A stretch of DNA of 55,232 nt, filler included, from Jimgerdemannia flammicorona (GCA_003990765.1; 2 parts of 2 records of this genome joined end to end with filler, not necessarily neighbours in it); one strand, 5' to 3'. Shown: positions 5,901-49,332, counted from the whole stretch's first letter. Program-made: numbers and translations. Notes: generated by a model not told the origin, from the letters alone.

Positions 5901-7975
5901 GCAGTATGGACCTCTTTGCAGGATTCCATGAGATCCCTATGGACCCCAAGGATATTCAAAAGACAGCCTTCCTTGCTCTAGGAAAACTGTTTGAATACCT
6001 CCAAATGCCCTTTGAACTCTGCAATACACCCCCCACCTTTCAGAGGATGATGAATTCAGTCTATGCCCCCTTGATCCACCACTGCCTGATTGTATACATG
6101 GATGATTCCAACATCTATTTAGCGAATTTCAAGGAACACCTGCACTACCTAGAGGAATTCTTCAAGCTTACCCACAAAAATCACTTGAGATTAAATGCAA
6201 GGAAATACTACTTTGGGAAACAGAAACTTGAATTCCTGGGATTCATAGTTTCAAAAGAAGGAACTCATACAGACCCAAAGAAAACCGAGAAGATCAACAA
6301 TTGGCCAGTACTCAAGACTCCAAAGGAAACACTATCATTTTTGATACTAGTATCCTACTACAGAAGATTCATCAAGGACTTTACCCAAATCGCTGCCCCA
6401 ATCTGAATCCTTCTCAAGAAAGGAATACTATTCAAATAGACAGAATCATAGGAAAAAGCCTTCAGAGAACTCAAGAACTGCATAACTACAGCACCAATCC
6501 TTGTGTGCCCCAATCTACAGAAGCCATTCATCTTATATACAGATGCTTCCAAAGATAGCCTAGGAGCAGTTCTAGCCCAAGAAGGACCTGACCAATAGTA
6601 CTATGTGATAGCTTATACAAGCAGAGCTACTAATTAGCAGTAGATGAACTATAGTAGCACCAAACTGGAATGTCTGGCAGTCATATGGATGGTCACCCTG
6701 TTTAAGCATTATCTCATTAGAAAAAGGTTCATCCTGATTACAGATCATGCAGCCCTCAAATGGCTATTCAACCACAAGGAACCTGTCAGAATCCTAGCCT
6801 GCTAGATCCTTATCCTTCAGGATTACAAAATCACAATTATTCACAAAGCAGAGAAAGCCTACAACAATGTTGATGTACTTTTCCACCAGCTCCAATGAAT
6901 CAGAAGAAGGGTGTTCCAAGGAACCACACCCTAAAGAAAGCTCCTCAGACTATCAAGGAACAAGAAGATCTCATCTGACAAGAACATCAGAAAACCCACC
7001 AAGGATAGACAAGTACAGAAGATAAGATTCGAAAACAATATCAATATTGGCCCTATCTCAGAACCCAAGTCCAAGATATCATTCAGAAATGTGATGTCTG
7101 CCAGAAGTACCAAGGAAAAGAAGAACTATCAAGCCCCTCTGCAACTGATTCCCCCACCCACTCACATCTTTCAAAGATGGGAAATAGATGTAATTGGACT
7201 ACTACCAGTTATACCAAGAAGAAACAAATACATTCTTGTATTTGTGGAATATCTGACCAAGTGGCCTGAGGCTTTCCCAATAGAAATTACAGATGCCTTA
7301 ACCATTGTAGGCCTCCTCTACAGACTCACACTCAGATATGGACCCCCAGAAGAACTCATTTCTGACTGAGGCATGGAATTTATCAACACCATAATCACAA
7401 GTTATACCCGAATTCACAAGATCCACCTCAAAAGGACCACATCATACCACCTCCAGACCAATGGCATGACAGAGAGAATGAACCAGACCATCAAGAAAGA
7501 ACTTGCTCAAGTCAATTCTACTAATTGGGACCTCTGCTTACCTGAGATCCTATGGGAAATTCAGAACACCCCTGCTGCCTCCACCAAACAAAAGCCATTC
7601 AAAATAATGTTTGCCAAGAGAACCAGAACTGCTGACCATGAGAATCTTGGAGACCTCTTCAAAAAGGCAGAACAGTTACATAATCAAGCCTGAGGATAGA
7701 TTATTAAAGCCCAAGAAAGACAAAAGAAGTACTATAACCAAAAACAGAAGGATCAGGAGATCAAGATTGGAGATCAAGTACTAGTTTGGAGAAGCATAAT
7801 TGAAATAAATTTTGCCACCAAACTGGAACCCAAATGGGAAGGATCTTATCTTGTACACAACATCAGAGGGACCAGTATCTATTTAAGAAGTATGGATGGA
7901 CAAACCCTCAGAACACCAGTACACATCAATTGTCTCAAGATATACCTTTCTCCACATCATGAATCAGAGAGTTGA
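3000..7975 (+). pseudogene. pol: pol of element 1 (PR, dUTPase, RT, RNase H, integrase)
   Basis: Domain motifs occur in Gypsy order; ORF-track fragments 5906-6406 (RT), 7091-7369 and 7373-7693 (integrase core). Confidence 0.92.
4665..5075 (+). pseudogene. dUTPase domain within pol of element 1 (between PR and RT)
   Basis: All five trimeric dUTPase motifs are in one frame: VGYDL, SRSGL, GTIDSGYIGEI, GQKIAQ, RQAKGFGSS; one TGA. Confidence 0.93.
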
Positions 7976-8459
7976 TAACTGCCTTCAGACTCTTATCCTC
8001 AGCTCATTTCAATCACTGCTGGTCCCTCTATCCCAATTCTGAGAAGTCAATGGGAATACTCTCCAGAAGATCCAGATTCATCAAGAGAATCTTGTCCTGG
8101 CCAGACAATTGCTACAGGTCCGTCAACTTCAGGCCCACTATGCAATTGGGGAATAATTGTAGAACCTCTCAGTCCCAGAACAAACATATATCAGAAATAC
8201 CACAGGACTATTAAGGAGAGATGTTACTGCTGTCAACAGGCTCTACACCCTTTACAAGCAAAACCCTGCAACTCTGATGCAAGTACAATTCTCCTGGTAT
8301 GATACACAAGGAATGAACCTAGCCACCTACTTGAGCATTGTCAATACTGTTGAAATCTTATTTCCTGAAGAAGAAGAACTATCCTTAGAATGGAGTGACC
8401 ATAGTATAGATGATGAAGATGGAACAGGTATTTATGCAGAAGATGCTTACCCACACTAG
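7959..8459 (+). pseudogene. Accessory ORF after pol (~166 codons), unknown function
   Basis: The ATG overlaps the end of integrase. A single frame continues into ORF 8277-8459 with only three stops (TGA/TAA/TAG, each one C>T from CGA/CAA/CAG). Confidence 0.75.
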
Positions 8460-8511
8460 AATGATGACTAAAGGATAGTCTGAGTACAGACCATCCTTTA
8501 GTGGGGGCTGA

Positions 8512-9747
8512 TGTAACAAACCAGAATGTACTACCTAAATTATATCTTAGCCAGATGACATGAACATACAGCATAGTAACCTGCAACCATTGCTGCAGAA
8601 ACTATATAAATAGCCAGACTATCAGATAAGGTATATCTGTGCAGGACCTGTACACCTGTGCCAGACCTGCACACTTATACTGGACCTGCACAACTTGCCA
8701 TAGATAGCAAATCTATAGTTAGCCACATAGCAACCAGATAGTAACCAACTTATATAAATTACCCCAGAGATAAGAGTAAATAAACCTCAGTTTGAAATTG
8801 AATCCAAAAGCAAAAGTCACTACCATACTTCGAGAGGAACTCTACAGCCACTGTTAGGAGATTGTGAGCATTGGTCCCCTTTTTCCACTTCAGTCCACTT
8901 TCTAATATAAAGCTGATTTTGCCACCAAGTTCGAGTAAAGAACTTTGCCACCCTTTGAAAAGAAATCCGCCACTTAAGAAATAAGCTGCCATTTTCAAGT
9001 TATTTGCTGCTATTCTTGCCACAAGTCAGTCTATGATATAACCCTGTACAAATGAAGCCAGTCTTTGATGTAACTTGTCAAGAATCCTAGTTAATTCCCA
9101 GTTGAAGCTGCTGATTTAGGAGAATCCATGTTATCTGCCATTTTCAAGTTATCTGTATTTCCAGAAAAACCCTATTTATGCCATCTGAGTAGTATTCCCA
9201 ATTGAAGCCAAATCTACAATATCCAAGTTGATTGTCCTCAGTGAGCTCAAGTTATCAAGTTATTTACCATCAGTATAATTCCCAGTGAACCTGCACCCAA
9301 ATCGAGTTATCTGTCAAATTATCAGAATGACTTGAATAAGGAATCCACTTGCGCTATACAAGATCATCATGCAGAAATCACATAAGGAGAACTGCTAAAT
9401 TGCCAGACTATTATATATAGAGATCATCATGCTATACAGAAATCACCCACTACTCAAAAAGGAAACTACTCATACTATATACCAATTCTACCATTCCTAG
9501 TTAACTCAAGAAGAAAACCCATTCATACATATAAATTACTGCTACACCCAAAGAACCATCCCAATTAGAAAATTGACATACAAATTACTTGCAGATATCC
9601 AGCTTTGACTATTATACTACTAAATACTAAGGACCTCAGGAATCTTAGAACATTTTGTTGCTTTTTGACAAAGTAACTGAGGGCTCAAGCCAAACTACAT
9701 TAATCTCCAACCTTGTAATTTGCCTCTATTGAACCAGACATGTTACA
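8512..9747 (+). repeat. 3' LTR of element 1 (~1.24 kb), preceded by a PPT
   Basis: TGTAAC...GTTACA inverted termini; purine tract AGTGGGGGCTGA immediately upstream; its 3' part matches 181-900. Confidence 0.9.
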
Positions 9748-10139
9748 GTAGTAATAGATTTCCTTATTAAGAATTTTCTCAATTTTATACTCAATATAGT
9801 CTTTACTAATTATAAGAATAGATAGCTTGAAAATTTAATCAGAATAGAATAGTAACTGGTTTCAGATCTTGAGATAAGATATATAAAAAATTAGATAGAC
9901 TCATAGAGTTTCAGATAACTTGAAATATATAATAAGAGAATATAGAGATTTATTCTATAATCTCAAAGAGTTTAATAAATTTGGTTAAAATTTGTTTAAC
10001 AAGTAGTTAACTTGAAATTATATCTTAAGATTCTTAGTAAATAAAAAAACTTTATTACTAATAATATAGATTTCTTATCAATATTGTCACATAGTGGTTA
10101 CTGAGTCCTTCAAATATGCTAGATTCTCTTCAAGGTATA

Positions 10140-10985
10140 TCTCTTAGTGGCTTGAGGTCATGTTAGCATCAGAGGGATTATTGTCTTCTGCTTCATCATC
10201 ATCAAATTGGATTATATTATAGACATTCTTCATGACATATCCAACTTGGAGCATTTGTAGGATATGGTTATCAGGGTGTAGAAAGGTTTTGTCTATGATT
10301 TGAATATACTCAATATACTTATAGTTGAGTTCTTATATCATGTCATCAATTTGGCTATAAGATAGAGTTGTAACCATTTTGGTGGTAGTAACTCAGAGGT
10401 AGAAAATAAAGAAGCTATACTTATAGAAGAGTTCTTTGTATTTACAGGTGATGAGTTTCTAGTATTGGGACATCTGGATAATGTCAGTGTTGTGGTGGTG
10501 TTTGATCATGTCTTCTAGAAGGCAGCTGATCTGATAGTAGCTTGAGATTTGTCCAATTTAATGGGCCTTACTAAGTATGTTCAGGGTGTTTCATCAGACT
10601 TCCACAAAGTAGAGGAGTGCTAAGCTATGGATATTCATAAGAGGTAGAGAGAGTTTGGCTCAGTTGACAATAGCATTCCAAATGTCAGCACAGATATAGT
10701 TATATATCTCAGTAGTCATATTTATGTGTATATTTAGGAGTTGGGGTTATTTGTTTGTTTTATTGTAGTTCTCTGTTTTAATGTATCTCAGTGCTTAGTA
10801 TATATGCATTTGGTCTTGATTAGTAAGACTCTATTCGTGTAAATCTTGTATTTCATAACTTCAAGTTAACTTAACTTTATATAATATAACTTTAATTTAA
10901 CTCAGCTTTATGATCATATATGTGATTTCCAGATTTATTCAAAGGTTATATATGATTTCGGTGGCTTGGAGGTTGTGTGCTTATA
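10140..10985 (-). repeat. Truncated, more heavily mutated copy of the ORF-containing long LTR (family B)
   Basis: The reverse complement aligns with 30160-31020, including the start T(A/G)TAAGCACACAACCTCCAAG and the LTR-internal ORF (ATG at 10719). Confidence 0.85.
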
Positions 10986-12172
10986 CTAACAGAGAACATA
11001 TTTACTTAAAAGTGGTTTGTGGGTTATTAAATAAGTTTATTCACTATTTATAATATTGCTATACTAGGAGTAGTTATGTAAAGAAATATTATAGAGAAGT
11101 GTTCAGAAGTTGTATTCAAATTGTTCAAGTCTATTCAAGTCTGAGATTCTGAGATCTGGAAGAGGGAGTATTTATATTAGTGAGAGGCTATCTGGACTAG
11201 GCTAGATATGGATGTAGCACTTAGTGCCTTACTGAGTTAGAATATAGTCATATAGTATAAGTATAATCTGATATATCAAGAGATTATCTAACTGCTGAGT
11301 CAGTTTATAGTTATATTATAATAGGCTAATCTAACTATACTAATGACTACTAGGCTATCTATAGATTTAGATATTGTCTGGATAATCTTTGATGACATCA
11401 CTATTGATGACATTATCTATGGTAAAATCTGAACAGTTTTCTGACTTCTGATATCATCAGTTTCAAAGGTATTATTACCTCTATCTCTTGCTGTCCTTAG
11501 TGGTAGTGGTTGTATAAGAATAATAAGTCTTGGTTCTCTTTTTTTTTTTGGACTACTGGTGCATTTGTGAGAACTGGCCATTCTTATCTAGGGTGAGGGC
11601 TCTCATTGTTATAGCTGGGGATTTGAACCTCTCAGAAATGATATTTTCTATAATCTGAGACAATTTCTAGTAGTAATATCTATCACATAAATGGACTTGA
11701 GATTGGTTTCAACAATGTCAGCTTTCTTGAGTTCAGATGAAGCATCCGTCATTCTCTAACAGAGGTGATATAGATAGAGCAAACAGAGTTCTTCAAATGT
11801 ATTTTGCTTCTGCTAAGTGATGAGGTCTTATATGGTTATAGTATATCTTAATCTTGAGTTGATAAGTGTAGTTTATGAACCTTTGATAAATAAGATAGGG
11901 TTCTTCTTGTCTCAGTTTAAGTTTGGTACTTCAGTTTCCTTTTATAATAGTACAGTATACCAAAACTAGTTATAGAGATTCAGGGTCAGTCTTATGATTG
12001 TAGTACTTCTTCTAGTATTCTTATATCTTGGCAGTAGGTTCTCATGCTTGCTGACATATTTTGTGTAATCAGATAATCTCTTCAGTAACTTGTTTTATAG
12101 TCTTGTATATAGTTTCTAGATTTGTTTAGAGGTGATATATGATTTCAGTAACTTGGAGATTGTATGCTTATA
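10986..12172 (-). repeat. Family-B solo LTR variant with a different interior
   Basis: Start at 12172 (TATAAGCATACAATCTCCAAG) matches 30160; 10986-11410 matches 31500-31925; the middle (11420-12060) does not align by eye to the 30.4-31.5 kb ORF. Confidence 0.75.
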
Positions 12173-13346
12173 TAATAATAGCTTGACTTAGACTGTAATA
12201 ATTTTATAGTTATATTTTAGTCTTAGTACTTTTTTGCATTCTTTTGCTAGTCTTTTTTTGTCTTTTCTTATATATTTTACTATATTTCAATATTTTTTAA
12301 ATGCCTAGAAATCTTCTCTTGATACTAAGACTTCACTAGAATATTCTTATCTTTTCTTAGTACTAAGTCTCATGTCTTGGCTAATTATAAAATCTTTGAA
12401 ATAATATAGAATATTATTAGTCATCTTTGCCAAGAACTTATTTCTTGACTTTTCTCTTTTCTGAGATTCTTTTAGATCTTCTTTTAGATTTTATATAAAT
12501 ATTCTTATTCTCTGCTTAAATAAAGCTCAGAATATTTTCTCTCAGAATTCCTTTGAGAATACTTGAACCTATAAGTATCTCTTTGAGCTACTTTAGACCC
12601 ACCAGAATTACTAGTCTTAGCTACTTCCTCTTAAAGAAACTAAAACCATTATATTTGATAGCAGTGGAGTCATTATATCTTGCCTTATTAAGAAATCTTA
12701 TATGAATTTAAAACCAGCCGCAACTAGTTATATAAGTCCAAAATGAGCCATATTAGAGAACTTGTCTACTCTACTATAGAAAAAGTAGAGAGTACCAAAC
12801 TACAAGTTAATTTAGAGGATATAATTATCACTATAGCCTATCAAATCTGATAACTTTAAGTATAACTAGAATATCAGAAGACCAAGACTGCAACTGCATT
12901 ATATCCTACTACTATACTAGTTAGTTTCAAGTTACTTAAGCCAGACATCTTTAATAGTCATTAAGGAGAACTGACTACAGATGCATAGACCTTCTAATTG
13001 GACCAATACTTTGAATTTACAAGAATGAAAGAAGATATGTAAGTCTAATTTGCCATCATACTTCTCTGAGAAAATACAACTATCTGATAGTATAATTATA
13101 TCATAACCACTACTTCCTATTTAAATATAAAAATCCAGATTAAAAATCTTTCAAGGAGACCCTCCACCAGCAGTTCAAGTCTATTAATATTATCAAGCTA
13201 GCCTGAGATAAGCTAGTAAATATCAAGTAACTCAAGTTTATACAAAGTTATAATATATAATTTCTGTTAATTTTACTTAAGCTACTAATAATAGCTAAAA
13301 ATAAAAAGATAGACAACTATATCTAAGGCTTGAAAGGAAATATATA

Positions 13347-14539
13347 TATATATATATATATATATTTTTAACAGACTCAATGTCCTGCAGATTTTTATTG
13401 GAAGAGAACTTAGACTATATAGGCCAAAACCCTCCCCCACCACCCACCAAGTACTACCCCCCCATCAACCTAGACTAGCTATTGTCCAGTAGCTTAACCA
13501 TGCCAGGTACAGTAGGGCCAATGTGGCCCATACCTCATTCTGTGCATCATGCTCTTCCTACCACCAGGGGAAATCCAACTATATACTAATGACCGAAAGC
13601 AGATACCCGAGAACCCAATATATATATAAGGCCACACCCAAGCTAAATAGAATAACCTCTGCCATCCCAAAGAGAATGACAGGCAAAGAAAAACCCTCAT
13701 CAAAGCACAACACAGTGGGTAGGGCCTGGTTCTCCCAGTTGAGATGAGTAGAGGACTTACACATGAGGCAGGAGGAGACCCCCAATACCCCACTACTCAA
13801 GCCTGTGGGCCTTGATCACATTGCCATGTCAGCTCCCGGTTTCAGTTGAGTGTAGTCAAGATATCTGAAATAGGTAGCCTTGGGCCCCCCAACCCCCTCT
13901 GATGACCAGAGCCTAACCCACCAATCTGCCAAAAGAAGCCAAGAGTGTCACCTACCATCTAACTATGCCACACTAATCAAAAGGCCCCACCAAAGCAGCA
14001 CCTGCCCCAGCCCTGATAACTGCCCCCAGCCTGGCACCCTACTAGTTTACTATTATTACCCTTCCTCCTATCTGTGATGGCTATCTCCCCTCCCATCCCA
14101 ACATCACTCAAAAAACAGTTACCTATACCAGAACTGTGCTTACTGGGAAGCTCACTAAAGCCAGAGGGCCCCACCATAGGCACCAAGGATCTGCAAGTAA
14201 CCTACACTGAGCACTTGACACCCAAGATCAGCTGACTCCCTATGTAGCCCAAGATATACTGAGACACCACCTTGTTGGTGACAGCAAAAGGAAGAAGGTG
14301 CCGCACCAAAACAGATGCACTCCAGACATAGCTGAAGGCACCAGAAACTGTGAAAAAGTGGAGAAGACACCGATCTGATACTGAGAAAGGGGCAACTCAT
14401 CACCATTGCCCTCCTCCCACCATACCCATGTAGACATAGTAAACCAACCTGAGATAGAGGGGGTAATAATAGGGGAAAGAGGACTCAAAAGGTTGCCTAC
14501 CAAACCTTGTGACCAGTAAGATAGTAGAGAAAGGAGTCA
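13347..14539 (-). mobile_element. 5'-truncated LINE 3' fragment inserted into gag of element 2
   Basis: Flanked by a 14-bp direct repeat AAAGGAAATATATA (13333-13346 and 14540-14553); (TA)n tail with AATAAA on the minus strand; G-rich minus strand like the 49.5 kb LINE; possible RNase H remnants (ITD.., VIKAH). Confidence 0.75.
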
Positions 14540-14921
14540 AAAGGAAATATATAAGATAAGATCAAGCTAAAAGAGTCACAGATCCTCAATAAAACTATGA
14601 GAATTACTGATAAATTTGATGTTATTATCTTTAATAACTGCTTTGAACCAGAATACTGTAAGAAAAACTACTTCAAGAACTATTACAAGAACTAATCCAA
14701 AGTAGTTGGCCTAGTACTAATAGATTTAGATACTATGAACAAGAAAAATAACAAGCTTATCTTAGAAGAAAAAGACTATCTGAAGAAATCTGGAGCTTAT
14801 TTCTTCTATTACCAAATAAGATATATTATAACTAAATATTCTAAGAAGACCAGTAAACTCTCAAGACTAGTCATTGTATTATCTAAAGATATATCTGTTA
14901 ACTCTACCACTAGTTAATCTA

Positions 14922-27577: not shown

Positions 27578-27677
27578 NNNNNNNNNNNNNNNNNNNNNNN
27601 NNNNNNNNNNNNNNNNNNNNNTTAATTAATTAANNNNNNNNNNNNNNNNNNNNNNNNNNNNNNNNNNNNNNNNNNNN
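27578..27677. other. Assembly gap or contig spacer (44 N + TTAATTAATTAA + 44 N)
   Basis: Exactly 100 nt with an all-frame-stop linker in the middle; not biological sequence. Confidence 0.97.
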
Positions 27678-30159
27678 TACCAAGTGGCCGATGCCCTCAT
27701 GGTATTGGAATGTACTCTTCCCGAATGATTGATGATTGCTTCTCTTGTGTCAACGAACTGGCTCAAAGAAGAACCAACAGAAGAAAGGCTCCTACAACTG
27801 AAATTACCACCATTGGATCAGACAAACTGCTCACCCTTAAGGCTTTTGTCAATGGAGCACCTGTCAAGATTATGATAGACAGTGGTGCCTCAGGCAACTT
27901 CATCAATGAAGAGACAGCCAACAGACTCAAGGTCTTCACCTCCCCAGTACTTCAAGCGGCAAACCCTGCCCTACTATATGAAGTCACCACTGATGCCTCT
28001 GACCTAGCTCTTGGAGCAGTGCTCATGCAAGAAGGACACCCTGTGGTCTATCACTCCTACAAATTCAATGATGCTGAAATCAACTATGCAACTCACGAGA
28101 AGGAAATGCTAGCCATCGTAGACACTCTGATCAAATGGCGACCATATCTAGAAGGAGCACACTTCACTGTATTGACGGACCACAAGTCATTAGTCAACAT
28201 CAAGACACAGGCTACCCTTTCTCGAAAGCAAGCTAGATGGATGAAAGTCCTCACCAACTTTGACTACGAAATCCAGTACCACTCTGGCAAGGAAAATATT
28301 GTTGCCGATGCAATCTCCAGACCACCAATCGAAGAGGTTATCCAAACTCTGACCTTGGTTACCAACACTATTATGGAACAAATCATCACAGCATGTATTG
28401 ATGATAAAGAAGCTCAAGCACTCCAAGAAATCCTAAACAATGATGATACTGACAAATATACCCAGTACAATCAATATCAACTCAAGGATAATGCTATCTA
28501 CTACAAGGACAGATTGTATGTTCCAAACAACTGAGACCTCCGAAGGACTATCCTATTCGAATGTCATGATGCCCCTACAGCTGGACATTTAGGATTTGAC
28601 AAATACTATGAAGTTATCTCCCGAAACTTCTATTGGCCCCGTATGGCAGATCAGCTCAAAACCTACATCACTTCCTGTGATGCCTGCCAACGAAACAAGT
28701 CCTCAATACTAGCAAAACCCGGCTTACTTCACCCTATTCCAGTACCATCTGCAAATTGGGAACAAATCTCTATGGACTTTATTGTACAACTACCCCGAAC
28801 CAAGAACGGGAAAGATGCAATTGTTGTCTTTGTAGACTATCTCAGCAAACAAGCCCACTTTGTGCCTACTACCACTACTGCAACAGCACCAGACATAGCC
28901 ACACTCTTGTTTGATAATATCTTCCGCTATCATGATCTTCCTAAGATCATTGTTAGTGATCGAGATCCAAAATTCACCAGCCACTTTTGGAAAGCCTTCC
29001 ATGCACACCTTGAAACGAAACTTGCACTATCCACAGCCTTTCACCCTGAAACTGATGGCCAAACTGAAAGAATGAACCGAACTCTGGAACAAATGCTAAG
29101 GAACTATGTCTCCTACAGACAAGATGATTGGTATGAACATCTCACCGCAGTCGAGTTTGCCTATAACAACAGCAAGTAAGCCTCTCTTGGAATGACCCCA
29201 TTCTTCGCCAATGCTGGACAAAACCCAACACCCCTTTGACACTTATCCGAACTACTGAAGAACCCTCCACAGTTGAAGCTGTTGAAGAATTCCAACTCCG
29301 AATGCGTAATCTAAGCCAGATCGCAATCGAGAATTTATCACGAGCTCAAGAACAACAGTCACAGTATGTTAACCAACACCACCGAGAAGAAACCTTTGAC
29401 ATTGGAGAAAAAGTTCTACTAGACATCAGAGGATACCGAGTTGACAACCTCAAGCACAGACCATCTACAAAACTGAACAGCAAGTTCATTGGACCATTCG
29501 AAGTCATTGCACAAGTCTCTCCAACCTCCTACAAACTGGCGCTACCAGACACTATTAAGATTCACCCAGTCTTTAATGTTCAATGTCTCAAGTGATATAA
29601 TGACAATGACGACAAGCTATTTCCAAACCGAACCACCAAACCACCTGCACCTGTCATTATTAATGACCAAGAGGAGTATGAAGTTGAACAAATCCTCAAC
29701 AAACATGGCAACAAGAACCATCCCGAGTACCTTGTTAAGTGGAAAGATTACCCGATCCACGATGCAACCTGGGAACCCAAGACCAATCTCCAGAATGCTA
29801 CTGACCTAGTTCAGGAATATGATTCCTTGAACAACTAGAATCAAATACTCTGCACCTATCTATACATACTATATATTACCCTCCTGAACATTATAACTAT
29901 CATGAACCAAGTCAGAACTCAGCAAAATAAGACAAGAATACCGAATCCCTAGAAAAATAGCAAAACTGAAAGCAAGCCTATTCTCCCCATACCACTGGTG
30001 GGAAATGAGGCATAGACACTTAAGAAGATTCCTTAGAGAAAATTCTCCAGCAGTGAATGACATCAGAATCACTTCCGGCATATGGCATTGAACACACGAC
30101 CCTTTAACAACAAATTAGAAGGCCCTGATGAGGATGTCGAAAGCTAAGAAGGGGAGAGT

Positions 30160-31948
30160 TGTAAGCACACAACCTCCAAGCTACCGAAATTACATGTTAC
30201 CCTCTGAACAAGCCACTGAAATCACACGCGACCTCCGAACAAATCTGGAAATCACCTGCTTGATCACGAAGCTGAGTCAAACCAAAGTCACAGTGCACAA
30301 AGCTGAGTCAATACGAAGTCACAGAACACAGGATCTATACAAATGGAATCTTACCAATCAGGACTAAATACATATATATTGAGCACCGAGACGCGTCAAA
30401 TCAGAGAATCAAAACAAACAACAATCACAACTTCCAAACACACAAATATGACCACTGAGATCTACAACTGCATCTGCACTGACATTTGGAATACCATTGT
30501 CAACTGAGCCACACCCCCTCTGCCCCTCATGAATATCCATAGCCTGGCACCCCTCTACTTTGTGGAAGCCCAATGGAATGCCCTGAACATGCTCAGCGAG
30601 ACCCACTGAATCGGACAAATCTCAAGCTACTACCAGATCGGCCGCCTCCTAGAAGACATGGTCGAACACCACCACGATACAGATATTACCCAGATGTCTC
30701 AACACCAGAAGCTCATCGCCTGCAAATATCGAGAACTCTTCTATGAGTACAACACCTTTATTCCCTGCCTCTGAGTTACTATCAGCGGAATGGTTGCTAC
30801 CCTGTCCTATGGTCAAATTGATGACATGATATAAGAACTCAACCACAAGTACCTCGAATACATCCAGACCACAGACAGAACCTTCCTGCACCCTGATGAC
30901 TACATCCTACAAATGCCTCAAGTTGGATACGCCATGAAGGACATCTATGATATAATCCGCTTCGATGAAGACGAAGCAGAAGACAATGATCCCTCTGATA
31001 CCGACATGACCTCTAGCCAAGGATCTCTGCCAACCCTGATCACTCTGCCAACCTTGCCGATAAACTTACAACGGTTCATAACTACATACGAGACTTATTG
31101 GGACAATGACCACTGTCATGAATACCAACCCGTGTTTACCCCCGACTACTTCAACTACAATGAAGAGACCGGAGAACACAACCTATACCTCCAGACAACC
31201 CTCGAGATGGAACCAACCACTCCACCACCCGAGTACGAGCGACATGAACCACAGCCACCAGCATACTATAACCCCGCAACTTATAGTGCTGTAACCTATA
31301 GAAGGTACGCAGACAGTGAATCCAATGAAAGCAAAGACAATACATCCATCCTTCGTCCACCAACACCTTATCCAGCATATGAAACAGATGATGCTATCCT
31401 GTGGGACGGAGATGAAGTCCCAATGTATTACTACCTCAGCCAACAAGGAGAAGTAATCCACGAACCACTCTTCCTAGACGACTACTTCATCAGAGATGAT
31501 GCAATCGATGGTGATGTCATCGAAGACTACCCAGATAGTGTCTAAACCTATAAATAGTCTAGCAGTCATAGTATAGATAGATTAGCCTTGTACGATGTGA
31601 CTGTGAACTGACTCAGCAGTCAGACGATCTCTTGACATATCAGATCACACTTGTACTATGTGACTGTATTCCAACTCAGCAAGGCACTTAGTGCTACATC
31701 CATATTCAGCATAGTCCAGATAGCCCTCACTAGTATAAATACCCCCTCCCCCAGACCTCAGAATCTCAGACTTGAAACAGACTTGAACAATCCGAACACA
31801 ACTCCTGAGCACTTCCCCACAATATCTCTTCATACAACTACTTCTAGTATAGCAATATCATGAATAGCAAATAAACCTATTTAATAACCCACAAACCACT
31901 CTTAAGTAAATCCACTCTCTGTTAGGTCCTACTCCTAACCCCGTCACG
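30160..31948 (+). repeat. Long (~1.8 kb) family-B LTR containing an ORF
   Basis: Starts TGTAAG directly after the PPT; both ends recur in the 10140-12172 region; TATAAA (~31735) and AATAAA (~31870) near its 3' end. Exact end is uncertain. Confidence 0.75.
30448..31545 (+). pseudogene. LTR-internal ORF (~365 codons): conserved helical N-terminal domain and an acidic Pro/Tyr-rich tail
   Basis: ATG 30448 is in frame with ORF 30913-31545; only four stops (3 TGA, 1 TAA), each explicable by C>T. Confidence 0.75.
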
Positions 31949-31957
31949 AAATTTCCT

Positions 31958-32160
31958 AATTGGGTATTGTCTGCAGCGATACGCCAATTCAACTAAGCTG
32001 GTCTTAGTTTCTTGAACTTCCTGAAATACGGAAAATCCTGAACATTCAGAACTAGTCCAAAAAAAGGACTTTGGTTGAGACATCAACCCGATCTTGAAAT
32101 CAATAAGTGTAGAGGACATACTCCATATGAAATTGATCCTGACCATAAGAAAACGGTCTT
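31958..32160 (+). repeat. Fragment of a second LTR family (D)
   Basis: Aligns with the reverse complement of about 48440-48625, the 5' LTR of element 5. Confidence 0.8.
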
Positions 32161-32199
32161 CCAGAACATTCAGAATATCCAGAAAACCTTTCCAGAACT

Positions 32200-34804
32200 A
32201 TGTAATGATTACCCTAAAAAGTAACCCTCTTATAAAGAATGAAGTAGCTGATATACTCTCCTAAAGTACCCAGAAAGATGACCTCATTATAATTAGTAAC
32301 ATTATTATCAGTCTATTTGAAGATGTCATGAAGGAGTATATCAAAGATACAAATGTATAAGAAATCACCAGATAAATCTTTGAAGAAGGCAATAATATTA
32401 TAAAAATAGTCTATAAGAATATATTTGTCCAAAATGGATATATGTATCTTAATAATATAGAAATCTAGGTCCTAGTTATCTCTATCTATTTACAAATCCT
32501 ATAAGAACTATATGATATACCTAGAGTTAGATATATGAGTTTCAATAAGATATATTTATATATTGCTCAAGACTTCTATTAGTCCAAAATGACATCTAAA
32601 ATCAAGAACTACATTATATTCTGCAATATCTGCCAAAGGTATAAGCTCAGCAATTAGGCACTAGCTAGTACCCTACAACTACTACCAATCTCTACTCAGA
32701 ATTGAGTCTATATTGGAATAGACTTTATTGTCTAGTTGCTAAAAACTAGAAAGAAAGAGATGTGATTGTTATTTTCATTAATTATCTCAGCAAGTATACT
32801 TACTTTATTAAAATAATCACTACTGCAACAGTACCAGAAATGATACAACTATTTATTAATAATATATTCTACCTTCATAAACTACTCTCAGCAATTATCT
32901 CAGACCAAGATATAAAGTTTACAAGTAATTTTTAGCAAGTACTCTTCAAGAGCTTAGAAGGGTAATTGAAAATGTCTATAGTATATTATCTGAAAATAGA
33001 TGGCCAGACAGAAAGAACAAATCAAACTCTGAAGCAGATACTTAGTATCTATTATAGCTATAAGTAAAATAATTGGGATGAAAAGCTGACTCTAGCTGAA
33101 TTTACAAATAATAACAGCTCAAGTATAAGTATCAAAATGATATCATTTTACTTAAATTATGGATAATATCCATAAACATCTACAGTCATCATCTGAATTA
33201 TAATACCTGTAGTATAAGGAATCACTGATACCATATAAGGTAATAACTAGTAAGCACAAGATATCCTCATAGAAGTACATAGAATATAAAGATATGTATA
33301 TACTAATAAAAATAAAAAAGAAGTCATCTATAAAATAGGAGAATAAGTATTACTCAGTATTTGGTACCTAACATTGAGTAATATAGGTCTCAAAAAGAAG
33401 CTTAGATCCTACTATATTAGACTATTCAAGATCTTTGAAAAATACAGACCTATTATATATAAGTTGGATCTCCCAGTAATACTAAGAAGAATTCATCCAG
33501 TGTTTCATATATCTCAGCTTCAGCCATATACTTCAAATACCTTTAAAGAAAGAACTATACTATTTTCAGATTTAGTAATTGTTGATCAATAACTAGAATA
33601 TAAAGTTAACTATATTTTAGATTACAAGGATTGCCAATTTAGATGAGCTGCCAAGTCTATCTAATACTATGTATCTCATAAAATGAAAAGAATATCCTGA
33701 ATATAATACCATCTGGAAAATAGAAGATAATTTATTACTAAATACAGAAGAAGCAGTAACTCAATATAGAAATCTGATATAATGAAAATTCTGATAGAAT
33801 TTTCAAAAGACAGTCATATCTCTAAATAATCTTACAAAGAGAAGTATAAATATTCTGAACAATTCTACATAGACCACCCACTCTCCCCCAACATGAGTAC
33901 CCAATAACAATATCTAGAATAAGTTAAAAACAAGATTGCTACCACTGTTTTAAGATCAATTGAATACTAATGAAACTCTACAGACCTACTATCTGTCAAT
34001 ATTCAAAGCTCTGAAGACTTTGATCTAAATAAAGCTCAATAATATCTTGAAAGAATATAATATTTTTGGATTTTTTACTACTAATAAGAACTTAAGAAGT
34101 ACTATAAGATAGAATACCTTATCTATTAACAAGCTATCCTTAGTGCTGCCAAACAACAAGCCTGCCTTTTTATTGATAACCATATCTATATAGTTACTAA
34201 GAGACTCTATATTCATTTCTATATCTGACCTTAAGTCCTCAACCACCTCTATAGAGTATCTTCTGAAAACATTACCAATTTGAGTAATAAATAATAAAGT
34301 AAAATTGTTTTTCAAGTAGTCTAGTATATTGTCCTCTAGTTTAATAAATATCTAGAATTTAGTACTGAGTCTAATGAGTAGGCTTAAGCAAAGTAGAGAA
34401 GAATGTAATGAATTACTATAAGTCTCTGAAATTTCCTATAGAAATTTCTATCTATATATAGACATATCCAGCATATCATATTTAGTCATAGCCTTGAATA
34501 TATATAAATACTCTCTGTTCTGAATATGTTGTAACCTCAGCTCTGCTTTTTCTACATACAAGAATAAAGCAGTATTCTTATTACAAATTCTCAGATCTGA
34601 CTTGTTAATAATTTTGAGCTTAATTAACTTAGAATATAAGCATGGCCATTCCTACCTATTTAAGAATCCAAATGCAATACCTGAACTCTGCCATACTAGA
34701 TAACTTGGAACTCAGTATTTCCTCAAGAACTCAGAACTTAGGGCCAATAGTTACTATTAATTATCTGCAATATATTAATTCTATCAGGATATAGTTTTAT
34801 TACA
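32200..34804 (+). mobile_element. Degenerate 3' half of Gypsy element 4 (end of RNase H, integrase, chromodomain remnant, accessory ORF, 3' LTR 34404-34804)
   Basis: VADILS, CNICQR, IDFIV*LL, SDQDIKFTS, DGQTERTNQ and IHPVFHISQL; purine tract then a TGTAAT...ATTACA LTR. Confidence 0.85.
33893..34381 (+). pseudogene. Accessory ORF after pol of element 4 (heavily eroded)
   Basis: A single frame from ATG 33893 with no frameshift but many TAA/TGA stops; reads ELKKYYKIEYLI...VTKRLYIHF...LNHLYRVSSENITNLS. Confidence 0.6.
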
Positions 34805-42202: not shown

Positions 42203-43951
42203 TCAAATGCCGCGGTTGGTGAGCTGATCAGCAAGTAATTCAAGGTTTTTGATTATTTGATCTGCGTCGGCGCGGACTTTCATACTAGTACTACTGGCAG
42301 CTTTGCTCTTCAGGACAGCGACGATGGCATTGAGCTCGTTTACGAAGTTGAAACGCTTGCAGATTCCCTGGAGTTCATGGCAGAGGCTTTCCACCTGTTG
42401 GTATTTGGTTTTCATGGCGGACTCTATCATATTCTTGTCTTGTTGCATCTGGTTTTCTTGATTGATGTACTGGGACTGCAGTTGTAGTTCCCTGTCATGC
42501 TGGGCTTTTTTCATATGGTCTAATGTTTCCTCGATGGAAGGAGTTGTCACTTGCACCGTTTGCTTCACGTGCATGTGTCTGCAGGAAAGTGATGATGACA
42601 ATTAAAAGATAATTAAACAACCTGTGTAGCTTTAAAGCATTTGCAAAACAAATCGGATTTTTACCTATCAGGCCCACAGCCGCATTTGTCGCACCTATTT
42701 CCCGACATGCATGCACAGTCCTTAAAGATAGCTCTATCGCCATTGGGAGTGTATTGGAGAACGCAATTTTCGTGGCAGATTATATTATCATTAACGTGCT
42801 CTCTGCACAAAGTGTTGTGGTGCTCACTTTCAACCATTTCGGTTTTGGTTGAAATCGTAGTAGTTTTGAAGCTCGCGTATTTTTGCTGGTCGGATTTGGA
42901 GTTGCTGAGGCCTATCCTCACTGCATCAAGCTTTTCTTCAACGGCATTGAGATTTCCAATGTCCATCATGATGGCAGTGATCTGGACCATTATCATGTCT
43001 CGCGCCTGCTTCATCTTGTGGAACGACTGTGTGGAAGAGGCTTGAAGAGATGCGATGGTGTCCAGAAGCTTTCGGATGGTACGCTGGGACTTCTGCCAGT
43101 TTATATCAACTTCCTCGCGTAATTCTCCGTCATTTCGCCAAGTAGCCGGGTCCGAGCTGAAAATAGTATTGTTCATATAAAAGACCTCCTGTAGTGTTGA
43201 AAAATGTAAATGAGAAAACATTCACTTGTGAATTATCCATTGATATACCTAAAAACTTACATAAGGTTTGGCGACTTTCATAGCAAAATCCCTCAACGAA
43301 AAGCATGCACCAGTCCTGTCCGTCTTGGTAAGTATCAGGAGCAGGTTCTTGTTGGTTATATCATCAGGCAAATTCCCGGCTAGGAGGACAAGGGTGTTCT
43401 GAACACTAGCAGTCACCCGAGCCTCAGTCCCGCTGGCGACGACGACAATTGCTGAGAGATGGCCGGTTTTCATGGCTGCATGAGTGATTCTATCAATGTT
43501 GATTTTATCCTGGTCGATGCCGCGGGTGTCGCTCAGACCAGGCGTATCGATGAATGTGAACCTGCGGTGGTTTATAGGATCCTTGAATTCGTAATTGTAG
43601 CAGCCGTTGGTGGTGCTGGTGGTGACATTTTCTATGTCATTCTCTGAGTCAGGCCTGTAAAGGTCTAAATGTTTTTTTTTTTTTTTTGTAATGAAAATTG
43701 GAAGATTCAACAAGTGCGGATATGAAATGGTTAAACACAAAATCAAACCTACCTCTTTCGGTCACATTTTTGTAATAATGCGTGGAAATGGCAATCTTGA
43801 TATTATCGACCGTGCCTTGGCGAAAATGATTAACTATAGCGTTGATGAGAGTGGACTTGCCCACGCCAGTTCCACCGACCAAGAGGACTATATGGTTTTT
43901 GTTGGCTCCGTCATTTGCTGATCCAGCAGTGGTCGAAAAGAAAGCAGACAT
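42203..43951 (-). CDS. TRAFAC P-loop GTPase (AIG1/septin-like) with a Cys/His-rich insertion and C-terminal coiled coil, 4 exons
   Basis: G1 GGTGVGKS, G3 IDTPG, G4-like LTKTD. Then HNTLCREH..CHENC..CACM..CDKCGC..HMH and a long helical tail. GT-AG introns join the four ORF-track pieces. Confidence 0.88.
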
Positions 43952-45064
43952 TTTTCGTAAGATTGTATTCGGACTGGAATTGGAGGGTTTTTGTTATGTT
44001 TCCTGAAATGTGTGTGTTGAGTATTGACGCTTCGTATTATGCTGCCGATGAATGTTTCTTGAGTGACCGAGATACGCACATATTTATAGGAACACCGACG
44101 GTGCAAAATCCCAAATGTATAGCGGTTGCTGAATACAAGCACAAACAATAATGATAGCAAAAGCCAACGTGAAAAGTAGACCATGTCGAGTGGATTAAGG
44201 CCTCATCGATCTTTGATGGTATGATAATTAACACGCCGAATGTGGGGAATATAGATGAGAATGATTATCAAAATCCATTTTACGGTTTAAACTAATGAAA
44301 ATGATGAGATATGTTATTTTTGAGCTTTCAGGTCAAATGGAAAGGCGGCGACTGGTATGTAATGAGAATATATTCGGAACATTGGTGATATGTACATGCT
44401 CTGAAAAGTGACTACATCTATATTTTAATATCTATATGGTAGTATATCACCAAGTCACACAGGTATATCGGATAGCAGATACTCGAACAAGCATCGACCA
44501 AGAGATCTGTCGTACAGATTACTTGCGCTTGCCGATCCAACATTTCGAATTTCTTAATGCACCAGTGCGGCGTGATGGCTGAGATGATAAAACGGTCAGA
44601 TAATATTAAATCATGTTCTAAATCTAGAGAAAGAGCGAATGATGTGATACACCATATACCAACACTCCATGTGTTTTACACACATCACATCATAAAATCC
44701 TCTTCTCCTTCGGCTTTAGCCAATAACTATATCTGAGGTGATTGGTTACAACCCCTTAAATTAATTCGTAGCTTTTCCGGAACCGCGGAATACCAATTTT
44801 TTTGATGCTGTTATAATTAGCAGTCTACCCGTGTCCAACGACCTATTAATGCGTTTACTTATGAATAGCTGACAGACATGGTTGCAGCGACCTCTAAACT
44901 CACAACAGTAGACCTACGTTCGTTCCACATAGCGCTACCACTGTTGAGTCACGAAAAACGAAATGAACAATTTAGTAAATTTATCAATGTGATATTTAGC
45001 ACTAAGCCGCTGTTGTACCACGCATTCATCAACTATCGTCAAAAGGATCTGGGACGTACAATAA

Positions 45065-48000
45065 TTGTTAATGGGGTGAAAGGACAAGAATTAAATTTAT
45101 TTTGCCCAGGAATAGTCTTAATTATATAGTCAACTGCTTGTTTGGGTGGTAGACCTTTGGGAAGTTTCTTTGAGAATATATGTCAAAATTTCTGAAGTAG
45201 GGGTCTGACATGATTGTCAACTTTGGAAAAGTCTTCTTCAAGATTCTAAGGTTCTCCTTTGGATGGACATATGGAGATAGCAAAGAGAGGGCATTTCTTT
45301 GCTAATTTCTTGAGTTGTAGTTTGTTGATATGGGTGATCTTTGGGCCAGGGTCACTAGTGCTGAGTAGATTTCTTTCATCTTGCAGTTTGAAATTGTAGT
45401 ATTCTTTACCCAATCTATTATGGAGTTTTCTTGTTTTAACTATGGAGTTCTAAGAATGATATTATTGTCTAAGAGTAGTATAATTTGGAGAGCAATATAT
45501 ACTTAGTAGTTACTAATTCTGAAGAATAGTAGACATCCTTGCTAATAATATATGAGGTTCTATTAACAGTGACAACCACTTGGGTTTGTTATACTGGAGA
45601 GGTCAAGACTTTAAGTCTGTTGGCTGTTTCTTCATTAATGAAATATCCTGAGACACTACTGTCTATCATAATCTTAACAGGAGGTCACTTAACAAAAGCT
45701 TATAGAGTAAGCAATTTATCTGATTCTATAGTGATAATTTTAGTTATAAGCAGCTTCCTTCTATTAGCTCTTTATTGAGCTAATTTATTAATATATAAGA
45801 AGTAATCATCAATTATTCAGCAAGAGTACATTCTAATACATTAAGTACATTGGCCACTAGATATAAATCTATCTTTAATTTTTTTATAGAATTATTCCTT
45901 CTTACATATTTATAATAGATTGTACTGGGGCTTTATTTGATGAGCCAAATCCTTTAGATCCTCAGATAGTATATAGTAGTTCAGAGACTTTCTTGACTAT
46001 TAGTATTAAGTCAATTTTTTCAAATAGAATCTGAGCAATATTGTAACTGATAGAGATTTTAAATAGTATCCAGCCTTAGTTCCTGATGAGGATAATGATT
46101 TTATTTATATAATCTTCATCAATAACTTATCTTTCTATTGAGAGTCTTTTTAATACTAAACTACTATAACAGTATATTCTTCCAATATGTTCTTCAGGAA
46201 TTTGAATACTAATTTCTGTGTAGACTTACTTAACTTCTCAGTTAGAAACTATAACTTCTTTAACTACATATAGATCATATTTAGCTACCTTTTGGCTTTC
46301 TTTAATAGAGGCTGTGATTGTTATTCTTAACTTGATAAAGTCTAGTATTTTGATAGTAATATTGTTGAGGTGATACAGAGTAGTGATAGTTACTTATATT
46401 GTAGTTTGGAGTTTTTAGTTAGAGTAAGTACTGGCTATATATTCTATCTTTTAGTAATAGAAGTATACTCTACTTCTTTGGAGTTCATTTCTTTCTCCTT
46501 CTGTAAGTTTTTTGAAAGTACTCAACTAAGTAGATTCAGAATTGCAGTATGTCTAAGAAGTAGATACAGAGAGAGCTCTGGATGATTTGTGCTTGAGTTC
46601 TTCTTTCTTGTTCTATAATTTTTTCTTATTAGGTCTATAGAATTATTTTTAAGGCAAAATTGGTCCAGTCATTAGAATTTGCTTAATTATGGTCTTAATT
46701 CTAGCTAGGTACCATTATTGATGATCATAACTAACTGGATATTTTTGTTCTTAAATCTTCCTTGTGAGCCATTCTAGTAGTATATTGAATAAATGGTCTA
46801 CTCTTAAACTATTTCAAGCTTCATCATTGGTAATATATCCTAGATCAATAGTGTTCAGAAGTAACTCAAGTTTTGTACAGAAGATTTCATATTCCTCCTT
46901 ACTATATATGTTAAATTTGAGATTGCAGAGTTTAACTTAGGATTCAGCAATTAGAGTTTTGTTATAATATTAGACAATTATAAGTTATTTGAGCCCTAGA
47001 GCCATAGGGTGATCTTTATATCTAAGAGTGTTATTTGTTATATTTTGAGCTATAACTGCAGGTTGAGTGTCCTATTTGAGGGGTTTTTCAGGAAGAGTTT
47101 GCCACCATTCTTTAGCAGATCCTCAGAAGAATATAACAACTCAGTAAACATAAGCTATAGTACTGACAAACAGTTGTTCAATAGTGTGGTCTTAATTATT
47201 CATTAGGAGGTGATCAGCAACTTACTTATTAGTCCATTGATTGGCTTCAAAATTGATATCTACTATACTAATAAAGATTTAGACTTTTTATATAGTACTA
47301 TTAAAGATAAGTAGACTCAGACTTTTAGTTGGCTGGGTCTGTTTAGTTAAAATAATAATAGTTGCTACAATTATAGCTATCTGAGCTATGTGGACTTGAA
47401 TTTGTTAATTTGCTATATTATTTATAAGAGATAGTTGAACTACTTGTAGTAGGGTTACTGATATAACTTGAGGTACTAGTGTAGAGTATGATAGTATTTC
47501 TTGAATTTATGTAAGTTGTTAGAGTAATCACTATAGATCTGAAATAAGGGCCTGATAGATACATAACTATCTGTTATTCTATAGGTATATTTTGCCTTGA
47601 GAGAGCTATATCTTCTTCAGTAGTATATCTAGAATCAAACTCAGTGAGATATTTCTCCTCTTCTTCACTTTGGTCTTAATATAACTAAGTTTGTTCAGTA
47701 TCAAAGTAGATGGTATCAGTTATATATTAAAGTTTAGATAACCTTAAATCAAAAGCTCCTTCAAGATTATTTTCTATTTCTGGTTAGATTTTGAATTTAA
47801 ATAGAGTTCTAGCTAAGTCTACTTTTGACTCAGAGACTGATTATTGATAAAGAGTTCTCTGGCTTCTTCTTTAAGAATATGGCTGACCTTACAATTCTGA
47901 TAATAGTAGTATAGAGCAGTCTTGGTTCTGGTATAGTGATAATCAGTAAAGTTGAGCTACTTAGCTATAGAGGCTTAGACTTTATGAGAAACTAAAATTA

Positions 48001-48629
48001 GAAAGATTGCTACTAGTTATCCTAGATTACTTAGGTTTGTAGAGCTTATAAAACTTTTATTAAGAAGAGTAAAGAAGGCTTCTATAAGACCTTCTTTATC
48101 TTAACTTATTGAGTATAGAGCAAGAAGTTTGATAAATAGAGTTTCACCTATCTGCTAATTTAATTAGAGTACTTTTTTCTTTATATAAAGTTTATCCTAC
48201 TTATTGCAGATATAGCAGTCTAATTTTCCTTATATATTAGGTTCAATTTACTCTGGATTATCTAATAATTTGAAATAAATTTCAGTTCAGTAGTTGGACT
48301 TTATATCAACTAATTGGAATTTCTGCAGAGACTTATAGCTAAGTGAGGAAGTATCTTGAAGTGAAATTGGATTATAAACCACTGCTACTAAGTTATAAGA
48401 GAGTAGTTTGTCAGAGTACTATCATATAGTTCTAATAAGATCAAGATCAATTTTATATAAAGTATATTCTCTATACTTATTGATTTTAAGATTGAGTTGA
48501 TGTCTTAACCAAAGTCCTTTCTTAGACTTATTCTGGATATTTAGAATTCTCTTTATTTCAGAAAGTTCAAGAAACTAAGACCAACTTAGTTAAATTGGCA
48601 TATCACTGCATATAATATCTAATATAACA
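45065..48629 (-). mobile_element. Degenerate 5' half of Gypsy element 5 (LTR D, gag, protease, start of RT)
   Basis: The LTR starts TGTTAT at 48629. Protease KIMIDSSVSGYFINEETANRLK is nearly identical to 27870-27940. The RT-proximal LPKGLPP..VDYIIKTIPG is truncated at about 45070. Confidence 0.8.
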
Positions 48630-48879
48630 GTGATCTCAGAATGATAACATCAGCACAAGAGACAGCAATTCCTTATAAGCCATCAGATTGGAGCACAAGA
48701 AGATTATGTGGTATAACTTATCCAGGCTATAAGATGAGTAATAATAACCAACTATAAGTTATTGGGACCACAATATAAATATCTTGAGGAATATAAAAGA
48801 AGGATCAAGGAACTACAGTAGAAGTAACTCAATAAGACCCACTAATCCTGAAATAGCTCAAAGACTTATTACAAACAAA

Positions 48880-49332
48880 ATGCCTACTACTTGCCAAACC
48901 TCAAGATCAAGGAACCACCAAGGCCTCTCAGTCCAGAAAAAGATGTTCTAAGACAACCAAAGAGTCATAAGGACCTGCACCACAAGGACTCCTAGTGTCA
49001 ACCTAGATACTGGTAACTCTTATCAATATATCCTCTATTACTGCAAGATGGAAACAAGAATCACCATTACTACTGAATACCTTCAGATGTGGCAAGAATA
49101 TGAAATAGAAAACCTCCTCTGCTGGGAATTTCCTCAAGTCAGCCCTCAAGAGTTACAAGATATCACTCTCATGGATATATATGAAATAAGGATAGCCAAG
49201 AAGATTTATCAGATCTTTAGACATATACTATGGTCAATCCCCAACTTGGAGTATATCAGAGTCTCAGACTTCAGGAATCTGTCAGCCTATTGTATCAATA
49301 CACTAAAAGCCATGGTAGCTACAGAGGTCTAG
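48880..49332 (+). pseudogene. Accessory ORF of a further retroelement remnant (element 6, ~48630-49545)
   Basis: ATG 48880 is in frame with ORF 49048-49332 (one TAA); CpG-depleted; shares motifs with the ORFs at 7959, 30448 and 33893; the frame may continue to 49521. Confidence 0.6.

Follow-up and report, generated by a model that had tools for sequence, protein, structure and literature searches.

Candidate accessory genes of Ty3/Gypsy retrotransposons in Jimgerdemannia flammicorona, one of them probably inside a long terminal repeat

Do the Ty3/Gypsy retrotransposons of a fungal genome carry an accessory gene of their own and, if so, what might it do for them? The question is raised by a stretch of DNA from Jimgerdemannia flammicorona (GCA_003990765.1; 55,232 nucleotides including filler, two parts joined end to end), the whole of which is called the window below, and in which four additional open reading frames (ORFs) lie among decayed retroelements. 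An initial annotation of the window, made from the sequence alone, had assigned these ORFs to four Gypsy-type elements (E1, E3, E4 and E6), had taken them for one uncharacterised protein family placed either at the env position or inside the long terminal repeat (LTR), and had suggested that this family was retained by, or exchanged between, chromoviral and non-chromoviral lineages. From our analysis we judge it moderately probable that the ORFs represent a single, rapidly evolving family of accessory proteins in fungal Ty3/Gypsy elements, acting as a regulator that the element itself makes. The parts of this reading differ in strength, and are taken up in turn.

All four ORFs run on the plus strand, and the peptides on which the annotation was built were recovered in their frames, each of which opens with an ATG (at 7959, 30448, 33893 and 48880). 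The E1 ORF (7959..8459) has 166 codons with three in-frame stops, and the E3 ORF (30448..31545) 365 codons with four. The E4 candidate (33893..34330) is heavily decayed, carrying 14 stops in 146 codons, and is E6-like by profile. The E6 ORF (48880..49520) has an in-frame stop near 48949, is open for 126 codons from 48952, and is decayed further on; its acidic tail is truncated by an insertion resembling a long interspersed nuclear element (LINE). Reading through the stops as C>T changes, as the annotation had done, is justified by intact relatives: all three E1 stops stand opposite R or Q, the one E3 stop within the coverage of the relative P0003 aligns with Q, and the E6 stop at 49330 also aligns with a Q of its relatives. 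The conserved spacing holds as well, with exactly 21 amino acids (aa) from F to LS in three of the four ORFs (E3, E4 and E6), and 30-33 aa by our own indexing, against the 31-34 originally counted, from the Y of YxIG to the basic motif. The fifth copy that had been announced is present on the minus strand at 10150-10719, and is a decayed copy of the E3 ORF with 73% protein identity to it.

The evidence that these frames are genes comes from their intact relatives in the databases, among which three protein families are discerned: E6-type, E1-type and E3-type. Close relatives of the E6 ORF are P0001 (215 aa) and P0002. A full HMMER pass (phmmer) over 1.84 billion representatives, with P0001 as the sole query, returned, besides a spurious repeat protein, five relatives: P0004 (247 aa, full length), P0005, P0006, P0007 (342 aa) and P0008 (200 aa). 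The E6-type proteins P0006/P0011, P0007 and P0008 are only 29-46% identical to P0004, and E6-type frames are open over 200-342 aa. Invariant in them are W-x-x-Y-E-I, A-x-x-x-x-Q, L-S and other blocks, and further conserved motifs are W-x-P-x-L-Q-D-N-P-D-Q, F-E-G-P-P-I and a terminal P-x-V-L-N-F. The motif reads YEIG in P0001, P0004 and P0006 (YEIR in P0007 and P0008), which bears out the suggestion that the IE of the window is a mutated IG. The E1 ORF has six relatives (P0012-P0017), which are 50-80% identical to it and 50-88% identical to P0012; two are whole, namely P0012 (171 aa, 80% identity to the E1 ORF) and P0013 (172 aa). The E3 ORF has a single relative, P0003, which matches its last 250 aa with 66% identity and 82% similarity and runs for 247 aa without a stop. 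Judged by these sequences, with their open frames and their motifs conserved across diverged relatives, the E1-, E3- and E6-type ORFs are coding, as the annotation had presumed.

The origin of the relatives is uniform: the eight whose source was looked up all trace to JGI or ENA metagenome contigs no longer than 4848 bp, and the most that any is named is 'hypothetical protein'. The initial annotation had likened the ORFs to a family expanded in arbuscular mycorrhizal fungi; this likeness did not emerge, for the P0001 pass over 1.84 billion representatives gave metagenome proteins only. A scan of metagenome contigs found one locus (L001, 1535 bp) among 163 pattern matches, and two scans of viral contigs found no matching locus. 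The E6 copy of the window (48855-48882) and L001 (350-378) show near-identity over the 26 nt that precede the ATG, although the two proteins are about 42% identical, which points to a constrained 5' leader.

Are the three families, and with them the E4 ORF, homologous? At the DNA level no similarity exists among the four ORFs, in agreement with the annotation: with transitions tolerated, their regions align with scores of 31-41.5, within the range of the shuffles (maxima 40-48). The link is made by proteins, and first of all by P0017, a divergent E1-type protein that bridges the E1, E6 and E3 families in the register originally proposed. By BLASTP it matches P0004 with an E-value of 0.001 (17 of 63 residues identical, in the YxIG-to-AKKI register) and the E3 ORF with an E-value of 1e-4 (18 of 69), the latter alignment extending from E3 residue 4 and the matching E1-type residue to YNIGQLLMD / YQIGRLLED. 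Smith-Waterman alignment with 400 shuffles agrees. Among 16 E6-by-E1 pairs, P0004-P0017 scored above all shuffles (z 5.0), while two others were reached by 7 and 19 of the 400; for the E3 ORF against P0017, the real score was reached by none of 400 in global alignment (z 6.9) and by one of 400 in local alignment, and against P0014 by 5 of 400. The E4 ORF came out with P0007 (3/400; BLASTP E 0.026) and P0008 (5/400), and at chance with the E1-type proteins.

Comparisons of profiles, which the annotation had proposed to hold against shuffled controls, gave a divided answer. With hhalign, the E1 and E6 alignments score 24.5 (P 0.011), a value reached by 2 of 300 column shuffles, and pair YAIG...AADRLYTLYK with YEIG...AKKIHQIFRH; the E3 alignment does not stand out (see below). 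A hidden Markov model (HMM) of the E1 type was tried on single sequences with 2000 shuffles each, of which 0 reached the real score of P0004, 0 that of P0006, 14 that of P0007 and 2 that of the E3 ORF. For the E6 HMM the corresponding numbers were 6 (P0012), 125 (P0013), 49 (P0017), 43 (E3) and 2 (E4). MAFFT places the E1-type and E6-type proteins collinearly over the full E1-type length, including W-(5)-D-N-x-D and P-Y-(F/W) near the E1-type C-terminus. When the whole window is scanned in six frames, the best matches outside the query's own family are E3 and E4, and with scoring that is aware of C>T decay E4 takes rank 1 or 2 of 738 windows, on a high noise floor (median 56-60 bits).

A good number of results weigh against a common origin, and several of them speak for an alternative, namely that the ORFs are real but represent three or four unrelated, lineage-specific accessory genes whose short helical motifs and acidic tails are convergent. 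The ORFs of the window are not linked by BLASTP among themselves: E1 against E3, and P0001 against the E1, E3 and E4 ORFs, give E-values of 0.34 or worse, and P0012 against P0006 is also non-significant. The links lean largely on one sequence, P0017, as the best of 16 and of 8 tests, with corrected values of about 0.016 (E1-E6) and 8e-4 (E1-E3). Of the E6-by-E1 pairs, 13 of 16 are at chance (real score matched or exceeded in over 19 of 400 shuffles), as are six of the eight Smith-Waterman comparisons with E3, and P0008 under the E1 HMM is equalled by 687 of 2000 shuffles. The hhalign comparison of E3, right in register, comes to P 0.1 with the E6 alignment and to P 0.079 with that of E1; when the E3 N-terminal domain is taken, the real score is matched or exceeded in 14, 2 and 13 of 100 column shuffles. 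In the whole-window scans the E-values are 0.11-0.74 for E3 and E4 (0.16-0.46 for E4), a spurious match inside pol scored as well as either of them, and a meaningless frame at about 46011 beats E4 under the E6 profile when C>T changes are tolerated. What the alternative of unrelated genes has to explain is that P0017 aligns with each of the other two families in one and the same register, with the E-values given above, that the E1-E3 alignment begins at the N-termini of the ORFs themselves, that the order of helices is identical in independent models, and that the charge layout and the position 3' of pol are alike. We consider unrelated genes unlikely, and a single family of E1, E3 and E6, linked through their relatives, probable to quite probable. 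E4 is a borderline, E6-like case that rather likely belongs with them, and for all four ORFs together the chances stand about even, so that the claim of one family of four is upheld for three members and left at the border for the fourth.

Where do the ORFs lie within their elements? The E3 ORF is found inside an LTR-like unit. The polypurine tract AAGAAGGGGAGAG (30146..30158, plus strand, 13 nt) is followed by a T and then by TGTAAGC, with which a unit of about 1.77 kb begins (30160..31925, plus strand), ending in ..TGTTAG. A second copy, comprising the first ca. 860 nt, lies on the minus strand at 10148..10985 and contains the decayed ORF copy mentioned above. It is abutted end-to-start by the last ca. 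435 nt of such a unit (10986..11421, minus strand). The two units meet precisely at 10985/10986, an arrangement that resembles a two-LTR junction. The first ca. 112 nt occur a third time at 12058..12171 on the minus strand (118 columns with 75 matches, 29 transitions and 4 transversions), and after this third copy comes a C-terminal fragment of an E1-like integrase (12058-11890). One contig from a sequencing run joins into 30159. The unit thus behaves as a discrete repeat, with a fixed start at three places and a fixed end at two, also apart from pol. Its signals are TATATA at 30373, TATAAA at 31549 and 31734, and a sole AATAAA at 31870; the last two suggest that U3 extends to about 31760, and therefore that the E3 ORF is probably located in U3. 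The unit is followed by a leader-like segment (31959..32232, plus strand), which recurs at 48441-48623 on the minus strand, where it heads a minus-strand relative of E3. This segment measures 190-270 bp, is common to the E3 family and the minus-strand element, and is matched by many contigs from four runs; one metagenome contig, aligned at a likeness of 85% and so of little weight, joins its end (32232) to pol position 28143. The summed depth of the run contigs is higher over 30212-32252 than over pol, a difference that is given no weight here since contig depth cannot rank parts of an element; no contig matched 32253-32400.

We consider it likely that the E3-type unit is a 1.77-kb LTR and that the E3 ORF lies wholly inside it. 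Caveats are the end of the unit, which is ..TGTTAG where a ..CA end was looked for and is absent, and the fact that neither an LTR pair of one element nor a target-site duplication is visible for E3, whose 5' part is lost in two 44-base runs of N (27578-27621 and 27634-27677). A gene within the LTR might have its own promoter. TATATA at 30373 precedes the ATG of the E3 ORF by 75 nt, with no ATG in the leader between them, and in all four cases that can be compared (E3, E4, E6 and L001) the first ATG downstream of a TATA-like element (TATAAA/TATATA) is that of the ORF. As TATA-like words are common in AT-rich DNA, this arrangement is a hint and no more. Together with the only AATAAA behind the ORF, the TATA-like element before its ATG would allow each such LTR to be a self-contained expression unit.

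The pol remnant of E3 (27680..29838, plus strand) encodes protease, RNase H, integrase, an SH3-like domain and a chromodomain. Its protease is fused to RNase H, the reverse transcriptase (RT) having been deleted at about 27942-27950, as contigs from three sequencing runs diverge from it at 27942 and 27950. Element E1 (185..9747, plus strand) is more complete, with LTRs at 185-900 and 9028-9747 that are 87% identical, a zinc knuckle, a dUTPase domain, RT and integrase; a domain search of the window frames detected no chromodomain in it. Its dUTPase domain (4563-5330, plus strand; Pfam E 1e-17) is situated upstream of RT, and dUTPase-bearing Gypsy elements have been reported in Phanerochaete, Postia and Tuber (PMC2864245). 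The start of the E1 ORF overlaps pol: its ATG at 7959 stands 14 nt ahead of the pol stop TGA (7973-7975), in another frame. Downstream of the ORF come a G-rich run with TGTAAC (about 8505-8515) and then, from 9028, the LTR homology. Since it ends before both, the ORF is internal and occupies the env position. The G-rich run with TGTAAC (8505-8515) lies 520 bp upstream of the start of the 3' LTR homology (9028), and a second TGTAAC is found at 148-153, just ahead of the 5' LTR homology (185). The true LTR of E1 may extend beyond the 720 bp that align, in which case its 5' copy would have suffered a deletion.

For the remaining two ORFs the setting is less legible. The pol remnant of E4 (32496..33785, plus strand) begins inside integrase and continues with an SH3-like domain and a decayed chromodomain, the whole being heavily decayed; 111 transversions in 716 columns of integrase DNA mark it as a family related to, but distinct from, that of E3. 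A search of the window for the LTR boundary of E4 did not find one. The E6 ORF sits in a fragment of about 900 bp (about 48624-49520), between the end of the minus-strand E3 relative (48623) on one side and a LINE-like element on the other, and no Gypsy context is readable around that fragment in the window. The position claimed in the initial annotation is accordingly borne out for E1 (env position) and for E3 (inside an LTR-like unit). Its claim of sharing between chromoviral and non-chromoviral lineages agrees with the chromodomain of E3 and with the lack of a detected one in E1; exchange and vertical descent fit alike.

The three families have a common build. About 60 residues lead to a helix with YxIG, which is followed by a helix of AK(K/R)I type and then by a strongly acidic tail, in proteins of 170-370 aa. 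The family motifs are YxIG, A-x-(K/R)-(I/L)-(H/Y)-x-(I/L)-(F/Y), and LS 21 residues further on. In the E3 ORF, a helical N-terminal part passes into a long acidic tail rich in Tyr and Pro. AlphaFold2, run separately on P0004 and P0012, predicted six helices in the same order, of 37/36, 7/10, 14/14, 6/6, 5/6 and 14/14 residues; the models are poor (mean predicted local distance difference test score, pLDDT, of 48 and 53), so that their agreement is weak evidence for a common fold. The N-terminal part has an isoelectric point of 6-10 in E6- and E1-type proteins, with a basic stretch near the N-terminus in some. The C-terminal part carries a net charge of -16 to -30 in seven of seven proteins, with 18-40% D+E and with bulky hydrophobic or aromatic residues, and this acidic tail is probably disordered. 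Some acidic tails hold PPxY-like motifs (PPPEY and PPAY in E3, at about 31200-31400, and PPAY in P0007), which are not conserved in P0003. The initial annotation had excluded an Env protein, rightly so: the highest 19-residue Kyte-Doolittle mean is 0.59-1.05 in all seven relatives, and no membrane segment is therefore present.

Domain and structure searches gave no name to the family. Pfam had no believable match for the ORFs of the window or for eight relatives; the Pfam scan of the window covered 102 of its 196 stop-free frames of at least 70 aa, those left out being for the most part ones with an overlapping frame on the complementary strand. No Gag family or CCHC knuckle was matched in Pfam at E-values up to 1 by any of the eight relatives, nor was one present in the ORFs of the window. 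The E6 profile had no match in a PDB sequence search. The E1 profile matched tissue factor (E 0.02-0.5) and a decarboxylase, both of which we judge to be chance; tissue factor is a beta-sandwich, and the query is predicted to be helical. Foldseek, used with the two low-confidence models (P0004 and P0012), found no match at an E-value of 0.001 or better, and the ESM Atlas held only unnamed clusters, the structural neighbours of P0012 having a template-modelling (TM) score of 0.37 or less. In none of these four resources (Pfam, PDB, Foldseek and the ESM Atlas) was a DNA-binding fold recognised.

What could such a protein do? Within the reading as one accessory family, our best guess, and a tentative one, is a transcriptional activator or an anti-silencing factor. 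It is put first because in build and in position, 3' of pol or in U3, the proteins and their genes correspond to retroviral transactivators, foamy virus Tas being an example. The helical part would bind either the element's own DNA or a host factor, and the acidic tail would recruit the transcription machinery or counter silencing, resulting in a higher transcription from the LTR. A conserved protein common to Gypsy lineages with and without a chromodomain would point to a function that the elements need, and this need could be met by activation of their own promoter or by escape from the genome defence of the fungus.

The same build would also serve a particle or integration cofactor, in which the acidic tail binds nucleocapsid, integrase or histones and the helical part oligomerises. 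A coiled coil is conceivable for the long helix (36-37 residues), the nearest structural neighbours of the Atlas model are helical-hairpin domains (again with TM scores of 0.37 or less), and histone and nucleic-acid-mimic binders typically have acidic tails. A cofactor fits less well with proteins that have neither a zinc knuckle nor a match to a Gag family, and with an E3 gene that stands outside the gag-pol unit with what appears to be its own promoter; we hold it to be unlikely. Somewhat more unlikely still is an antagonist of the host genome defence, directed against RNA silencing, heterochromatin or repeat-induced mutation in the manner of the suppressors of plant transposons and viruses. 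In its favour are the heavy C>T decay of the elements in the window, with stops opposite Q or R codons of their relatives, and the fast divergence within the E6 type (29-46% identity), which would fit an arms race; fast divergence, however, is normal for any accessory gene of a retroelement, and no similarity to a known suppressor or domain was seen. That the ORFs have no protein function, their conservation reflecting a constraint on LTR or 3' regulatory DNA, is very improbable: only open frames enter protein databases, so that open relatives are in part a matter of ascertainment, but neutral DNA would not hold frames of 200-342 codons open at 29-46% protein identity, the conservation follows residue classes (82% positives against 66% identities in P0003) and is concentrated in motifs, and protein motifs persist between families whose DNA similarity is gone.

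Returning to an accessory family with a regulatory role, the different positions of its members would call for a history. If E1 and E3 are homologous, the simplest one is a shift of the polypurine tract, by which a 3' ORF that had been internal would have become part of U3, or one in U3 internal. A bolder reading, which we regard as improbable at present, is that a clade of fungal Gypsy elements is 'complex' in the retroviral manner, with a conserved transactivator-like gene that is sometimes situated wholly in U3. Were it true, every LTR of the family, solo LTRs included, would be a gene complete with promoter, ORF and polyadenylation signal, an activator would act in trans on the copies of the family, and the gene would have crossed the border set by the polypurine tract, between the internal ORF3 (E1) and U3 (E3). 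A gene inside the LTR would in any event change how solo LTRs are viewed, as a protein could still be made from them. The family is small, and cheap to test.

The window in which these elements are found looks overall like fungal DNA, with blocks of host genes interspersed with retroelements, several of which are AT-rich and filled with stops. The host genes encode a cellobiose-dehydrogenase-type cytochrome domain with cytochrome b561, Duc1, and a P-loop nucleoside triphosphatase (NTPase). This P-loop NTPase (43252-43993, minus strand) adjoins decayed elements, and has weak matches to nSTAND3, NACHT and AIG1. In the minus-strand relative of E3 the protease occupies 45595-45858, and the 5' end is at 48623. 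The LINE-like element beside the E6 fragment (about 49590-55232, plus strand) contains an ORF1-like frame and an RT (53387-53995), and exhibits an extreme strand bias with a GC skew of up to +0.56.

Additional genes have been described before in LTR elements of fungi and of other hosts. In the Boty-like Gypsy elements of Botrytis cinerea there is an additional gene, brtn (Zhao et al. 2011, cited in PMC8365987); it resembles the ORFs treated here in being an extra gene, with no known function, of a fungal Gypsy element and differs from them, by its description, in being antisense, where ours are in sense orientation. Extra ORFs without a known function are drawn in full-length fungal Gypsy elements (PMC2864245, legend of Figure 3), for which the text gives no family, position or sequence that could be compared. 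Further afield, the env-like ORFs of Athila among plant Gypsy elements (PMC2864245) and the ORF3s captured by LTR elements of bdelloid rotifers (PMC5408684) are likewise accessory ORFs 3' of pol, spread across diverse types of retroelements; they differ in being env-like or in carrying enzyme domains of recognisable families, none of which the fungal family matches. In crapaud, the 5' halves of the LTRs are variable, and the sections of PMC10787394 that treat them describe no ORF there. Within the literature searched, which extends to the main text of PMC2864245, neither this family nor an ORF lying within a fungal LTR was found described. Accessory genes of fungal retrotransposons in general are almost unstudied, because repeat masking removes them from gene sets.

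The closest parallels in layout are offered by retroviruses. The sag gene of mouse mammary tumour virus (MMTV) is a superantigen ORF in the U3 of the LTR, and its product is a type II membrane glycoprotein. As is probable for the E3 ORF, sag is a complete accessory ORF in the U3 of a long LTR and is carried by both LTRs. The two differ, so far as a comparison by description goes, in that one is a membrane glycoprotein and the other has no membrane segment, and in that one belongs to a retrovirus and the other to a fungal retrotransposon. Foamy virus Tas/Bel1 and the nef of human immunodeficiency virus (HIV) are 3' accessory genes that reach into U3, and Tas combines an N-terminal DNA-binding part with a C-terminal acidic activation domain. 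With these, the fungal ORFs have in common a place 3' of pol, at or across the border of U3, a size of about 200-350 aa, and a folded N-terminal part followed by an acidic tail; the fungal ORFs have no detectable similarity to the sequence of any solved structure. Accessory genes are what divides the 'complex' from the simple retroviruses, and by this analogy fungal Gypsy elements, too, may encode a regulator of their own.

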